From a virus (Duplodnaviria > Heunggongvirae > Uroviricota > Caudoviricetes): 19,202 bases of DNA. The position numbers and the translations under genes are program-made. Each line of letters opens with the position of its first letter. Positions within the stretch are counted from its first letter, which is position 1. Of the stretch, positions 5,515 through 17,979 are shown piece by piece. The notes under the pieces are model-generated. The model was not told the origin of the DNA. It worked only from the letters and a program-made list of their open reading frames with translations, and ran no database searches. Where the stretch lies: IMG/VR virus record IMGVR_UViG_2526164689_000024. One strand, given 5' to 3'.

Positions 5515-5689
5515 GTTGACCTCATTTCCCCTTAACGCCGGGTCGCGGAACTAAAAACCTGCTGCGCTGTTATACAAAGTGTTCCCGCCGTCATGTTCAT
5601 ACGCCTCGGGCTGGCTACTTAACCCCTGACCACTGCCGGGTAACTCGAAGTATTGCCCTGCATTCTGTGAAGCGGGGTGGGTTGTAATG

Positions 5690-5742
5690 AATATAAGAAT
5701 ATTTAGTTTTTCCGTCAAGTTGAATATAAATATTTTTAAGAT
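5690..5742 (-). promoter_or_regulatory. PL-like leftward promoter with adjacent operator-like motif
   Basis: minus strand -35 TTGACG (plus 5713-5718), 17-nt spacer, -10 TATATT (plus 5690-5695); 23-bp AT-rich motif at 5720-5742 nearly identical to one at 6449-6470. Confidence 0.35.
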
Positions 5743-5787
5743 AAAAGGCCGACAAAGCCGACCTCTGATTACAGGGCAAAGCGGGAG

Positions 5788-6432
5788 CTAGAGGCTGAAC
5801 TGAACACCTTTTGCTACAGCAACGATGTTACATTCCGGTGTAAGTAAGGATGATTGATAGCGTGGGTTAAGGGGGGCTAAGTACACGAGCTTTCCATCAA
5901 TAACTAATTTTTTTATAGTCATGGATGGTTCGTTTGTGAGTGGATCTGGGACTATTACTGCGACGATGCTACCATTTTTATATTTTTCGCCAGGCCTCAT
6001 GATCACTGTGGCTCCAACTGGAATGCTTGGGGACCCTGATGGATTGTGCATAGTATCATCAGGCATTGAAACGGCAAAATCTCCCTCCTTGACATCAAAG
6101 AATGTGGTGATCCTGTCGACATTTCCCATAGTTTTCTCTCCTTTTAATATTAGGAAAGAAATCGCTTCTCCCCAAGAAAGGTATGGGATTTGGATACCTG
6201 GATTTTTCTGCACAAGGGATGATTCAGGTGATGATACTCCATACAGGAGATAGGACTCAGTAGTGCCTAGTGCTAGGGCTAATTTACTAAGAGCTTTGCT
6301 ACCTGGTTCGTTTAGATCTTTCTCCCAGTATCCTATTGTTACCCCAGTTACGCCAGAAAGCTTGCCAAGTTCAACTTGGGTCAGACCTTTGTCTTTTCTG
6401 AGTTTCTTAAGCCTAATGCCAAGGCTTTCCAT
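5788..6432 (-). CDS. cI: CI-type phage repressor (N-terminal HTH_XRE plus C-terminal S24 LexA-like autopeptidase)
   Basis: 214 aa; HTH LTQVELGKLSGVTGVTIGYWEKDLNEP; C-terminal FAVSMPDDTMHNP (Ser nucleophile context) and MTIKKLV (Lys), parallel to lambda CI GNSM / FTFKKL; divergent from the cro-like gene. Confidence 0.9.
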   Translation of the reverse strand: MESLGIRLKKLRKDKGLTQVELGKLSGVTGVTIGYWEKDLNEPGSKALSKLALALGTTESYLLYGVSSPESSLVQKNPGIQIPYLSWGEAISFLILKGEKTMGNVDRITTFFDVKEGDFAVSMPDDTMHNPSGSPSIPVGATVIMRPGEKYKNGSIVAVIVPDPLTNEPSMTIKKLVIDGKLVYLAPLNPRYQSSLLTPECNIVAVAKGVQFSL

Positions 6433-6530
6433 TATTTTCTCCCGCGAATTGAATATAAATTATTTTAGATTGTATTGACCTAAAAAAATTACCCTTTAAT
6501 CTAAAAATACTTAGTTTTAAGGAGGGCGAA
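6433..6530. promoter_or_regulatory. divergent immunity control region (OR-like) with PR-like promoter
   Basis: 98-bp AT-rich intergenic region between cI and cro starts; rightward -35 TTGACC (6475-6480), about 16-nt spacer, -10 TAATCT, SD AAGGAGGG before cro ATG 6531; operator-like motif 6449-6470. Confidence 0.45.
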
Positions 6531-6758
6531 ATGCGAGTTGATGAACTTGTCCAGTTTTTTGGTTCTGTCCAAAGAGTCGCTGATTTTTATGGGGTAACCC
6601 GAGAAGCTATATACATGTGGCGTAAGCGTCCCGGCGAAATAGTTCCCAAGGGGAGGGCTGCTGAAGCAGTTGCATACTCCAAGGGAAAATTATCGTTGAA
6701 CCCAGAACTTTACAAAAAGAAGGATAACACCTCGAACGAAAGGAAAAATGATTCATGA
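6531..6758 (+). CDS. cro: Cro/DicC-like small HTH regulator
   Basis: 75 aa; FFGSVQRVADFYGVTREAIYMWRKRPGEIVPKGRAAEA resembles lambda Cro and recalled DicC; strong SD; divergent from the repressor. Confidence 0.75.
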   Translation: MRVDELVQFFGSVQRVADFYGVTREAIYMWRKRPGEIVPKGRAAEAVAYSKGKLSLNPELYKKKDNTSNERKNDS

Positions 6759-7180
6759 AAATCAAGCATGAACACATCCGCATGGCGATGAATGCCTGGG
6801 CGCATCCGGACGGCGAAAAAGTACCGGCTGCGAAAATTACCAAAGCGTATTTCGAGCTGGGGATGACGTTCCCGGAACTGTACGACGACAGTCATCCGGA
6901 AGCCCTGGCCCGTAATACCCAGAAAATTTTCCGTTGGCTGGATAAAGACACCCCTGATGCTGTTGAAAAAATTCAGGCTCTGTTACCAGCGATCGAAAAG
7001 GCGATGCCGCCTTTGCTGGTGGCCCGTATGCGCAGCCACAGTTCTGAGTATTACCGTGAGATCGTCGAACGGCGGGATCGGCTGGTGAAAGATGTCGACG
7101 ATTTTGTTGCGTCAGCGGTTGTTTTGTATGACCAGATGAATCGCGGCGGCCCGGCAGGAAATGCCGTGGTGATGCACTAA
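6755..7180 (+). CDS. YdaT-like protein (proposed CII-type regulator / toxic when overexpressed in Rac)
   Basis: 141 aa; N-terminus MKIKHEHI and length match recalled Rac YdaT; start overlaps cro stop (ATGA), implying translational coupling. Confidence 0.45.
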   Translation: MKIKHEHIRMAMNAWAHPDGEKVPAAKITKAYFELGMTFPELYDDSHPEALARNTQKIFRWLDKDTPDAVEKIQALLPAIEKAMPPLLVARMRSHSSEYYREIVERRDRLVKDVDDFVASAVVLYDQMNRGGPAGNAVVMH

Positions 7181-12127: not shown

Positions 12128-12343
12128 GGTAAAAACGGTTTGCGGTAAAGCGAGAGTTAAGTAGAATTGCTGCGGGTGCTTGAGGCTATCTGCCTCAGGC
12201 ATGAACACCAAAAGGCAGATAGAGAAAAGCCCCAGTTAACATTACGCGTCCTGCAAGACGCTTAACATTAATCTGAGGCCCAATCTATGTCTCACAAATG
12301 TAGGTTAGCCTCTTACGTGCCGAAAGGCAAGGAGAAGCAGGCT

Positions 12344-12499
12344 ATGAAGCAGCAAAAGGCGATGTTAATCGCCCTGATCGTCATCTGTTTAACCGTCATA
12401 GTGACGGCACTGGTAACGAGGAAAGACCTCTGCGAGGTACGAATCCGAACCGGCCAGACGGAGGTCGCTGTCTTCACAGCTTACGAACCTGAGGAGTAA
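12344..12499 (+). CDS. hokD: Hok/Gef-family type I toxin (HokD/RelF-like)
   Basis: 51 aa MKQQKAMLIALIVICLTVIVTALVTRKDLCEVRIRTGQTEVAVFTAYEPEE, matches recalled K-12 HokD; an in-frame upstream ATG at 12287 would give 70 aa; leader contains a 10-bp inverted repeat. Confidence 0.8.
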   Translation: MKQQKAMLIALIVICLTVIVTALVTRKDLCEVRIRTGQTEVAVFTAYEPEE

Positions 12500-16676: not shown

Positions 16677-16752
16677 CGGCCCTTTAGCTCAGTGGTGAGA
16701 GCGAGCGACTCATAATCGCCAGGTCGCTGGTTCAAATCCAGCAAGGGCCACC
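16677..16752 (+). tRNA. tRNA-Ile2-like (anticodon CAT, probably lysidine-modified; Met cannot be excluded)
   Basis: cloverleaf parsed by hand: acceptor GGCCCTT/AAGGGCC, D-arm GCTC-AGTGGTGA-GAGC, anticodon loop CTCATAA, T-arm GCTGG-TTCAAAT-CCAGC, CCA encoded; very similar to recalled E. coli ileX. Confidence 0.8.
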
Positions 16753-16853: not shown

Positions 16854-16930
16854 GCGTTGTTAGCTCAGCCGGACAGAGCAATTGCCTTCTAAGCAATCGG
16901 TCAGTGGTTCGACTCCACTACAACGCGCCA
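16854..16930 (+). tRNA. tRNA-Arg (anticodon TCT, reads AGA/AGG)
   Basis: cloverleaf parsed by hand: acceptor GCGTTGT/ACAACGC, D-arm GCTC...GAGC, anticodon stem ATTGC/GCAAT with loop CTTCTAA, T-arm AGTGG-TTCGACT-CCACT, CCA encoded. Confidence 0.8.
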
Positions 16931-17695: not shown

Positions 17696-17862
17696 TTTTT
17701 TTGTTTGCTGTTTATTAAAAACACTTCTGCATGGTGAATCCCCCTGTGCGGAGGGGCGATCAGCAACCAGGTATATGGGATAATCGCGGATTTAGGTGCT
17801 GATACTGAATTCACCGGGAGGCACCCGGCACCATACAAGAAAAAGAATGTGCATGCAAACAT

Positions 17863-17886
17863 GCCCCTCTCCGGAGGGGCTTTTTT
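17863..17886 (+). terminator. strong rho-independent terminator
   Basis: GCCCCTC-tccg-GAGGGGC 7-bp GC-rich stem followed by T6. Confidence 0.8.
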
Positions 17887-17979
17887 ATGGGTAAAAAATG
17901 CCCGAATGGGTTCGGGCAATAGCATGAGATACTGATATTGTTGTGTTGTTATCGTGTGGATTTTAACCAGGGTTTATCA

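Follow-up and report, generated by a model that had tools for sequence, protein, structure and literature searches.

Two near-identical AT-rich motifs flank the cI-like repressor gene in this stretch of phage DNA, and their sequence makes them likely operator sites of a P22-immC-type switch, two of five 18-bp sites for the repressor and Cro. Initial annotation had offered the two copies as candidate OL and OR operators; they are best read as cI-like repressor sites at the leftward and rightward promoters, with the 22-bp direct motif giving way as the unit to an 18-bp dyad that also occurs at 5691–5708 and 6499–6516, over the −10 regions. The window (the whole stretch of DNA analysed, 19,202 nucleotides) carries a module formed by an HTH_3+S24 repressor, a P22_Cro-family protein and YdaT; the genes and motifs at issue are:

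5720–5742, no strand assigned: left motif, holding the OL2-like candidate operator (5724–5741)
5788–6432, minus strand: cI-like repressor, 214 aa, with an HTH_3 amino-terminal domain (Pfam, 8e-12) and a Peptidase_S24 carboxy-terminal domain (1.2e-10)
6449–6470, no strand assigned: right motif, holding the OR3-like candidate operator (6453–6470)
6531–6758, plus strand: cro-like gene, 75 aa, P22_Cro (PF14549, E 2.6e-9)

A repeated motif flanks the repressor gene

On the plus strand the left motif reads TTGAATATAAATATTTTTAAGAT and the right motif TTGAATATAAATTATTTTAGAT, with a start-to-start distance of 729 bp. The coordinates and letters first given for the pair are exact, as are the 20 identities (gapped alignment, over 22–23 positions) and the placement upstream of the −35 elements: the left copy starts 1 nt from the −35 of the PL-like promoter, and the right copy ends 4 nt before the TTGACC of the PR-like promoter. 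Without gaps, the similarity spans 36 nt (78%). Only two places in the 19.2-kb window, 5720 and 6449, carry the 12-nt core TTGAATATAAAT; with at most one mismatch allowed, 0.07 occurrences are expected, and two matches were reached in 0 of 200 shuffles. A stricter local test, in which dinucleotide-preserving shuffles were confined to the pair of AT-rich intergenic segments (66% and 73% A+T), gave a common 12-mer, direct or inverted, in 4 of 1,000 trials (p ~0.004). The repeat exceeds chance, though not overwhelmingly given local composition, and the same 66–73% A+T inflates the number of A/T-rich pattern matches in the region.

A probable 18-bp operator pattern at five sites

Both motif copies hold an 18-bp pseudo-palindrome, AT(C/A)TAAR-N4-YTTA(G/T)AT, of 7+4+7 build. 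The same pattern is found at OL and OR (5691, 5724, 6453 and 6499, with a weak version at 6478), where it overlaps the PL and PR hexamers; all five sites are given without strand, and mismatches are counted to ATMTAAR-N4-YTTAKAT:

5691–5708: OL1-like candidate operator, ATATAAG-AATA-TTTAGTT, 1 mismatch
5724–5741: OL2-like candidate operator, ATATAAA-TATT-TTTAAGA, 3 mismatches
6453–6470: OR3-like candidate operator, ATATAAA-TTAT-TTTAGAT, 0 mismatches
6478–6495: weak OR2-like candidate site, ACCTAAA-AAAA-TTACCCT, 9/14, one good half-site
6499–6516: OR1-like candidate operator, ATCTAAA-AATA-CTTAGTT, 1 mismatch

Matches with at most one mismatch fall at 5691, 6453 and 6499 only (0.03 expected in 19.2 kb; three matches reached in 0 of 200 shuffles), figures that are somewhat circular, the consensus having been built partly from the sites scored, and for which the sites of relatives provide independent support. 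After these, the closest match in the window is the left motif, at three mismatches. Of 11 perfect half-sites across the window, 7 fall within 5691–6505. The OL1-like site spans most of the PL −10 plus the spacer. The OL2-like site, whose core lies 5 nt upstream of the PL-like −35, is good in its promoter-proximal half but degenerate in the distal one. On the right, the OR2-like site overlies the PR −35 and spacer, and the OR1-like site overlies the PR −10 and predicted transcription start. OR counts two strong sites and, where P22 has OR2, a weak one; OL counts two. A search for a further OL site found none to the left of OL1, where the DNA is GC-rich, or in the 15-bp gap between OL1 and OL2; between OL2 and the terminator there is neither room nor a match for one. 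A 20-bp register, AATCTAA-N6-TTAGATT, describes the same content and was dropped for the 18-bp 7+4+7 form, which fits P22.

Promoters and the cI terminator

The transcription signals of the region are:

5690–5718, minus strand: PL-like leftward promoter, −35 TTGACG (5718–5713), 17-nt spacer, −10 TATATT (5695–5690)
5744–5766, minus strand: cI intrinsic terminator, hairpin GAGGUCGGC-UUU-GUCGGCCUU, RNA fold −13.7 kcal/mol
6444–6439, minus strand: cI Shine–Dalgarno sequence, GGGAGA
6452–6467, minus strand: candidate PRM −10 elements, TAAAAT (6467–6462, preferred) or TATATT (6457–6452)
6475–6502, plus strand: PR-like rightward promoter, −35 TTGACC (6475–6480), 16-nt spacer, −10 TAATCT (6497–6502)

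The PL-like promoter is strong, scoring 10/12 in a promoter scan, has an invariant GTCAAG in relatives and drives a predicted ydfA(DUF1391)/dicB-type operon, whose untranslated leader is common to K-12 prophage DNA. This 173-nt leader folds no better than its shuffles (z = +1.1), and an Rfam scan in and near the region returned no known RNA, DicF included. The PR-like promoter went unflagged by the consensus scan because its −10 matches at just 3 of 6 positions. Its −35, TTGACC, is conserved in four genera, and the arrangement TTGAYC-N17-TA(A/G/T)(T/A)(C/A)T is kept across genera, with a perfect TATAAT in Phlomobacter; the spacer is 16 nt here versus 17 in most relatives.

Overlap between the right copy and the cI maintenance promoter is very probable, as the sequence of the site and of its relatives suggests. 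The initial annotation had suggested, as one of two options, a PRM −10, TATATT, within the motif: the overlap stands for the right copy, and TATATT is possible there, but TAAAAT is preferred, as it is present in all four genera and occupies operator positions 10–15, matching the annotated P22 PRM −10. Other candidate signals in the region were set aside. TTGAAT within the motif, taken as a plus-strand −35, has no −10 at 16–18 nt in either copy; the leftward TTTATA-N17-AATAAT (6459–6431) from the scan has a −10 that overlaps the cI start codon; TATATT in the left copy (5729–5724, minus strand), taken as a −10, would use as its −35 TCGGCC inside the terminator; and a plus-strand terminator-like site at 6409–6427 lies within cI on the wrong strand. 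The U-rich tail of the cI terminator itself continues into the OL2-like site, and the terminator variants of relatives still pair on minus-strand RNA, through G–U or compensated pairs.

Relative to its own promoter, each motif copy falls within the −40 to −60 interval, a placement that would also suit UP elements, A/T-rich DNA bound by the alpha C-terminal domain of RNA polymerase, which would boost PL and PR instead of, or besides, binding repressor. On its own promoter's strand, each copy matches the UP consensus AAAWWTWTTTT (PMC11661796) at 10 of 11 positions and ends 8 nt from the −35, and the 11-mer AAATTATTTTA is common to the right motif and the rrnB P1 UP element AGAAAATTATTTTAAATTTCCTC (PMC3035448). 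Such matches are, however, not enriched in the window (7 versus 5.6 expected), and the motif sits 2 bp nearer the −35 than in rrnB P1. The conserved positions are those of operator half-sites and include C and G (ATCTAAA, ATCTAGA and TTTAGAT), bases not needed in an UP element, and a hetero-immune relative has a G/C-containing palindrome at this place with no A/T tract. UP elements are weak as the sole explanation and compatible with operators as a second role; we consider this reading unlikely.

Conservation of the sites and immunity specificity

The reading of the motifs as repressor operators draws on comparison with related loci. Aligning related immunity regions, which the initial annotation had named as a check, reveals a right motif invariant among E. 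coli loci and a left motif of which only the promoter-proximal half-site is kept. The OR3-like site is invariant in 49 E. coli-type loci (26 distinct OR sequences, cI 91–100% identical). The recognition helix is conserved in Arsenophonus and Phlomobacter (~53% cI identity) and in Xenorhabdus (~46%), and these three keep the OR3 half-site and its position, with sites at equal offsets from TTGAYC. The OR2-like site scores higher in relatives at the identical position (10–12/14; ACCTAAT-TAAA-CTTATTT in Phlomobacter), and most of the related E. coli loci have the OR1-like half-sites as a complete inverted repeat, ATCTAAA-AATA-CTTAGAT. Across 18 OL variants, the right half and key left-half positions of the OL1-like site are invariant.

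At the OL2-like site, A5724, T5725, T5727, A5728 and A5730 of the left half are invariant in the OL alignment, and the other half of the left motif is the cI terminator U-tract. The 3–4 nt between the PL −35 and OL2, among them the flanking TTG of the left copy, are hypervariable, and this TTG falls in the alignment's most variable columns, whereas the half-site positions are invariant. Loci whose cI is 100% identical still differ in the distal half (AAGAT, AAAAT, AAAAC and AAGGT), and OL2 alone may be weak or non-functional.

This variation bears on whether OR3 might be the only functional site of the pair, the left copy being a decaying or accidental look-alike in the terminator tail that owes its identity to chance or recent gene conversion. 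In favour of this, the left site has a distal half that is free of constraint and runs into the terminator U-tract, its 20/23 direct match to OR3 is peculiar to one lineage, and the local shuffle value (p ~0.004) is not vanishingly small. Yet the proximal half-site is kept in all E. coli lineages, Arsenophonus and Phlomobacter beside hypervariable flanks, P22 has a bona fide OL2 at the same position, and the centre-to-centre distance of OL1 and OL2, 33 bp or ~3 helical turns, suits cooperative filling of a weak site. We regard a functional role for OR3 alone as quite unlikely.

The shared plus-strand orientation of the two copies, which the initial annotation had called unusual for an operator pair, is not conserved among relatives: for three further E. 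coli lineages, an inverted comparison of left with right sites does no worse (16–18 of 23 positions) than a direct one (13–16 of 23). By the sequences compared, the same-orientation identity is confined to this lineage, in which both OL sites have changed to an ATATAA half-site variant. It arises because the sites are imperfect palindromes that happen to share, or have come to share, in this one lineage, their left half, spacer composition and a 4-nt flank. Just one copy, the left one in this lineage, has the sub-palindrome AATAT-N2-ATATT, suggested earlier as the internal binding unit; at the right copy the letters are AATAT-AA-ATTAT, and in other lineages AATCT-AA-ATTAA. A directional, non-palindromic element, for instance one with this core, a P2 C-type direct-repeat operator or a site for some other oriented factor, would account for a direct identity (20/23) that exceeds the inverted one (15/23) in the window, and phage repressors that bind direct repeats exist, P2 C being one (PMC2995052). 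The core is, however, absent from the right copy and from the left copies of other lineages, the direct bias is gone in lineages with an identical recognition helix, the copies are 729 bp apart and not adjacent, and the repressor is of the P22 C2/lambda cI type and not P2 C-like; such an element is exceedingly improbable.

The operator reading is also in keeping with the limits of the immunity segment. Homology to hetero-immune E. coli prophages ends at ~5685 and restarts at ~6700, and all five sites therefore fall within the repressor-specific segment. The hetero-immune relative L092 carries different palindromes, of GTAAC/GTTAC type, at the equivalent OL and OR positions. Of 5,426 complete E. 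coli genomes, 474 have the immunity region across 80% or more of its length, and this immunity type includes prophages of O111 and O157 strains.

The repressor and the spacing of its candidate sites resemble P22

The best solved relatives of the repressor are the P22 C2 amino-terminal domain (E 9e-7) and the lambda cI carboxy-terminal domain, and identity to P22 C2 is ~31% over 95% of the length (tblastn). The cro-like gene is divergent from cI, 98 bp from the cI start, and a YdaT-type inverted repeat stands at its end (6748–6765). The operators of P22 C2 are 18 bp long with the consensus ATTTAAGATATCTTAAAT, and their half-sites contain TTAA, lie on either side of 4 uncontacted bp and are read by Val33 (PMC5175364). 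Val33 is kept here (GVTGVTIGYW versus P22 GVSNVAISQW), with the recognition-region changes N32G, S36G and Q37Y. A candidate operator sequence for a dimer of the repressor amino-terminal domain is ATCTAAAAATACTTAGAT.

Alignment to P22 C2 turns GDSM into DDTM (Ser to Thr) and SAG into EAI (no Ala-Gly), with the Lys kept. The repressor and all of its E. coli and Arsenophonus-type relatives lack the self-cleavage signature of an Ala-Gly site plus a Ser-Lys dyad, and from its sequence the protein appears unable to self-cleave.

Distances from site centre to −35 edge, here versus in P22, are 13.5 versus 13.5 bp for OR3, 11.5 versus 11.5 for OR2, 32.5 versus 34.5 for OR1, 18.5 versus 18.5 for OL1 and 14.5 versus 16.5 for OL2. 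By analogy, the left motif most likely corresponds to OL2 and the right motif to OR3, because the DNA-binding domain is C2-like, the operators are 7+4+7 and the distances are those of P22 immC within 0–2 bp.

A proposed switch

In the switch that we infer, along with its binding, cooperativity, promoter start sites and order of site occupancy, a cI-like repressor dimer and the divergent P22-Cro-family protein would both recognize AT(C/A)TAAR-N4-YTTA(G/T)AT. OL1 (5691–5708) and OL2 (5724–5741) would bracket the PL −35, and OR3 (6453–6470), the weak OR2 (6478–6495) and OR1 (6499–6516) would span the divergent PRM/PR region. Repressor on OR1/OR2 and OL1/OL2 would turn PR and PL off, and repressor on OR2 would probably help a weak PRM. 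Once OR3 is filled, by excess repressor or by Cro, PRM would be turned off, its putative −10 lying inside OR3.

The direct identity of OL2 and OR3 (12 nt exact, including non-operator flank) is very unlikely to be functional in itself, whether as a recent OR3-to-OL2 conversion that retuned OL or through asymmetric recognition by Cro or another oriented factor; if it were, this would be a switch with an apparently non-self-cleaving repressor, inactivated by some other route. The proposed arrangement is most likely a textbook switch with an uncharacterised specificity and no new regulatory principle. It offers a concrete operator map, five sites with the half-site AT(C/A)TAAR, for a widespread, uncharacterised lambdoid prophage immunity type of E. 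coli, usable for predicting cross-immunity between co-resident prophages and for designing reporter and induction experiments. It also presents a natural specificity variant of the P22 C2–operator interface, in which Val33 is retained amid the three substitutions given above.

Comparison with known systems

Within the searchable literature, a full-text search for these operator sequences returned no phage paper, and a preprint on Stx-phage regulatory regions held no operator data for this immunity type. The likeness to P22 immC covers a homologous repressor (HTH_3 amino-terminal and S24 carboxy-terminal domains), a P22_Cro-family Cro, 18-bp 7+4+7 operators with a TAA core and A/T-rich centres, a PRM −10 (a candidate here) overlapped by OR3 and a repressor-gene terminator just before OL. 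The differences are a protein identity of only ~31%, with the helix TGVTIGY in place of P22 SNVAISQ; the half-site AT(C/A)TAAR in place of ATTTAAG; the lack of an OL3 (P22 has three OL sites), with OL2 adjoining the terminator; a cI leader of ~20 nt with a Shine–Dalgarno sequence, whereas P22 is near-leaderless; YdaT as the cII-type partner in place of C1; and a repressor without the Ala-Gly site and catalytic Ser.

Lambda likewise has divergent PRM/PR promoters with three tandem operators (one of them weak here) and a second cluster at PL beyond cI, a related repressor carboxy-terminal domain and an immunity-specific segment running from OL through cro. Its operators are, in contrast, 17 bp long and of other sequence, its HTH subfamily differs, and the OL–OR distance is ~0.73 kb here, without rexAB in between. 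The dicA–dicC locus of Qin and the racR–ydaS locus of Rac, in E. coli K-12, have been described as P22-immC-like, and the leftward operon here (ydfA/DUF1391 ... dicB) is of the dicB type. DicA and RacR differ in being short HTH proteins that lack an S24 domain and have operators of other sequence.

The PaaR2/YdaS/YdaT switch of CP-933P in E. coli O157:H7 (Jurenas et al. 2021, PMC8630535; Prolic-Kalinsek et al. 2023, PMC9986795) shares a lambdoid backbone in which a Cro-like protein is followed by YdaT, repeats that recur both in the PR/PRM region and in a PL region lying upstream of its repressor operon, and the YdaT-type inverted repeat at the cro end; its authors, too, noted direct repeats mixed with inverted ones. 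It differs in its repressor, PaaR2, in the half-site, GTTTAGTAA, and in the toxin–antitoxin pair carried in its repressor operon.

A repeated motif flanks the repressor gene

The initial annotation had paired two AT-rich motifs across the cI-like repressor gene, TTGAATATAAATATTTTTAAGAT at 5720-5742 and TTGAATATAAATTATTTTAGAT at 6449-6470. Both are placed correctly on the plus strand, 729 bp apart, and their near-identity holds (20 identities in a gapped alignment; 78% over 36 nt ungapped). The 12-nt core, TTGAATATAAAT, occurs nowhere else in the window, where 0.07 matches with at most one mismatch are expected and two were reached in 0 of 200 shuffles. Because both intergenic segments are A+T-rich (66% and 73%), a local null confined the shuffle to them; 4 of 1000 such shuffles produced a shared 12-mer, in either orientation. 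The repeat is real and not random, and the whole-window statistic overstates how extreme it is.

Genes around the motifs
5788-6432, minus strand: repressor gene between the two motifs (214 aa; HTH_3 N-terminal domain, Peptidase_S24 C-terminal domain)
6531-6758, divergent from the repressor gene, on its right: P22_Cro-family gene (75 aa)
6755-7180, right of the P22_Cro-family gene: YdaT gene
Left of the repressor gene: DUF1391 (ydfA-type) gene, then dicB

The window is 99.9% identical to an E. coli O111:H11 prophage adjoining potC. Its immunity region recurs at 86% identity in O157:H7 and phage vB_EcoS-689R5 and, with 80% or more of its length covered, in 474 of 5426 complete E. coli genomes. 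Contig JAIHTM010000357.1 (1797 nt), binned as a Collinsella sp. MAG, has this E. coli prophage immunity region with a 93% identical cI and is almost certainly a binning contaminant. Elsewhere in the prophage, Rfam matches comprise sok antitoxin RNA (adjoining hokD), two tRNA genes, sRNA STnc100 and the anti-GcvB sRNA AgvB (as one list, 12174-12349, 16678-16750, 16854-16927, 17700-17892 and 17893-17954).

An 18-bp pseudo-palindrome as candidate operator

Repeat finding identified 6498-6520 as an inverted-repeat partner of both motif copies, and 5690-5710 as 86% alike to 6498-6518. At the cro promoter most related E. coli loci carry ATCTAAA-AATA-CTTAGAT, whose half-sites ATCTAAA and ATCTAAG make a full 7+4+7 inverted repeat, which points to an 18-bp pseudo-palindrome, AT(C/A)TAAR-N4-YTTA(G/T)AT, as the operator unit.

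Candidate operators, with mismatches to the 18-bp pattern
5691-5708: L1 (OL1), ATATAAG-AATA-TTTAGTT, 1 mismatch
5724-5741: L2 (OL2), core of the left motif, ATATAAA-TATT-TTTAAGA, 3 mismatches
6453-6470: R2 (OR3), core of the right motif, ATATAAA-TTAT-TTTAGAT, 0 mismatches
6478-6495: weak middle OR site (OR2 equivalent), 9/14
6499-6516: R1 (OR1), ATCTAAA-AATA-CTTAGTT, 1 mismatch

With at most one mismatch the pattern matches only L1, R2 and R1 in 19.2 kb (0.03 expected), a test that is somewhat circular because the consensus was partly derived from the same sites; 7 of the window's 11 perfect half-sites fall in 5691-6505. Independent support for the pattern comes from the sites of relatives.

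Aligning related immunity regions, the check proposed in the initial annotation, did recover conserved half-sites. The right motif, R2 included, is unchanged in all 49 E. coli-type loci compared (repressor 91-100% identical; 26 distinct OR sequences). Among distant relatives, Arsenophonus and Phlomobacter (repressor about 53%) and Xenorhabdus (about 46%) retain the recognition helix GV(T/S)GVT(I/V)GYWEKDLNEP and, at matching distances from a conserved -35 (TTGAYC), sites built on the same half-site (for example, Phlomobacter ATATAAA-TAAA-CTTATAT and Xenorhabdus ATCTAAG-TTTG-TTTAGAT). One of their OR sites ends 4-5 nt upstream of TTGAYC (9 nt in Phlomobacter), another begins at its fourth base and another lies after the -10; these same-offset sites argue for three sites in OR, the middle one weak in the window because the spacer A-tract is one A shorter. 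This tract (6482-6488, in the PR spacer and the weak OR2-like site) is A7 in the window and usually A8 in related loci (A9 in two of them); the PR spacer accordingly measures 16, 17 or 18 nt, and the right half of OR2 is displaced. The difference could be real length variation or homopolymer sequencing error.

Across 18 OL variants, L1 and the -35 (GTCAAG) show almost no variation and the following 3-4 nt, including the TTG of the initially annotated motif, are hypervariable. The proximal half-site of L2 is conserved (A5724, T5725, T5727, A5728 and A5730 invariant); the distal half, which forms the cI terminator's U-tract, differs even between loci with identical repressors. We consider it improbable that the left copy is a weak or vestigial site.

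L2 and R2 match better directly (20/23) than inverted (15/23) in this lineage; three other E. coli lineages, whose recognition helix is identical, give 13-16 direct and 16-18 inverted. Since the direct bias is confined to this lineage, the shared orientation, remarked on initially as unusual, is probably an accident or conversion event rather than a feature of the system, and an operator of directional or direct-repeat type is highly improbable. The proposed AATAT-N2-ATATT binding site also falls away, being found solely in the left copy of this lineage.

The candidate operators lie within the immunity module

In thousands of E. coli prophages the window's flanks are present and the centre differs. 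Homology with hetero-immune prophages ends about 5685, a few bases outside L1, and resumes about 6700, at the 3' end of cro (last ~19 codons); both points are abrupt mosaic junctions that bound the immunity module. One hetero-immune E. coli prophage of the same gene order, with a cI-cro intergenic region of only 49 bp, has its own G/C-containing palindromes where OL and OR would correspond (480-545 and 1305-1330 of that prophage locus), AAGGTAAC-AAGA-GCTACCTT and GTAAC-TATT-GTTAC, as would be expected of operators, unlike generic promoter elements. The motifs might instead be UP elements: their position agrees, both match AAAWWTWTTTT at 10/11 and the 11-mer AAATTATTTTA is common to the right motif and the rrnB P1 UP element. 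However, the window has no excess of UP-like matches, conservation falls on the operator positions and the hetero-immune relative lacks the A/T tract at that place, so that a UP role would be secondary at most.

Across the cro stop and ydaT start, ATGATTCATGAAAATCAA (6748-6765) differs at a single position from the YdaT operator, TTGATT-N6-AATCAA; CP-933P YdaT has a footprinted OM site at the same location (PMC9986795). The surrounding part of cro is common to hetero-immune prophages.

A proposed switch

Repressor dimers on OL1 and OL2, 33 bp (about three helical turns) apart, would block PL (TTGACG-N17-TATATT), and dimers on OR1 and OR2 would block PR (TTGACC-N16-TAATCT). Measured from the predicted PRM start, repressor on OR2 would be about 31-42 bp upstream (the figure varies with the choice of -10), a position suited to activating a promoter with a poor -35; excess repressor or Cro on OR3 would turn PRM off. 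Looping may occur, because only 0.73 kb separates OL and OR.

The S24 domain reads DDTM in place of G-D/M-S-M (P22 C2, lambda cI, LexA-type), with Thr for the catalytic Ser, and E-A-I-S where P22 has S-A-G, without the Ala-Gly cleavage site; the Lys is retained. The pattern is identical in every relative of E. coli type or from Arsenophonus/Phlomobacter, and the Xenorhabdus repressor has the Ser and lacks Ala-Gly. With these residues, the repressor may be resistant to RecA-dependent cleavage. In the part of the near-identical RefSeq prophage that was retrieved, the annotation lists no antirepressor gene.

The cI terminator hairpin (5744-5766, minus strand, -13.7 kcal/mol) varies among lineages (plus strand GGTCGGC/GCCGACC, GGCCGAC/GCCGACC, GGTCGAC/GCCGACC); these changes preserve pairing, as G-U or compensated pairs, only in the minus-strand RNA, and this confirms the terminator's strand. 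The untranslated leader from PL to the DUF1391 gene (5515-5685, minus strand, roughly 170 nt) is 87-96% conserved in thousands of E. coli genomes, including unannotated K-12 prophage DNA; its predicted folding is no more stable than that of shuffled sequence (z = +1.1), and Rfam gave no match.

Comparison with P22

The closest solved structure to the repressor N-terminal domain is that of the P22 C2 N-terminal domain (E 9e-7; about 31% identity over full-length proteins). C2 operators are 18 bp (consensus ATTTAAGATATCTTAAAT), with four uncontacted bp between half-sites, and are read mainly by Val33 packing on TTAA methyl groups (PMC5175364). Val33 is kept here, whereas Asn32, Ser36 and Gln37 become Gly, Gly and Tyr, which fits a half-site retaining TAA and differing at position 3.

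Operator centre to -35 edge in the window and in P22 (annotated immC region)
OR3: window 13.5 bp, P22 13.5 bp
OR2: window 11.5 bp, P22 11.5 bp
OR1: window 32.5 bp, P22 34.5 bp
OL1: window 18.5 bp, P22 18.5 bp
OL2: window 14.5 bp, P22 16.5 bp

The likeness of these distances marks the right motif as the probable OR3 equivalent and the left as that of OL2. The annotated P22 PRM -10 occupies OR3 positions 10-15, which here read TAAAAT (6467-6462), conserved in all four genera; the TATATT first proposed as PRM -10 (6457-6452) is kept as the alternative. An OL3 is present in P22, whereas here the terminator directly follows OL2. The CP-933P switch is related but has another repressor and another half-site. 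P22-like geometry, conserved half-sites and the hetero-immune relative's own palindromes together argue for the two motifs as OL/OR operators, as initially suggested. None of the papers in the library searched prints these candidate operator sequences, and they represent a new specificity in a thoroughly known kind of system.
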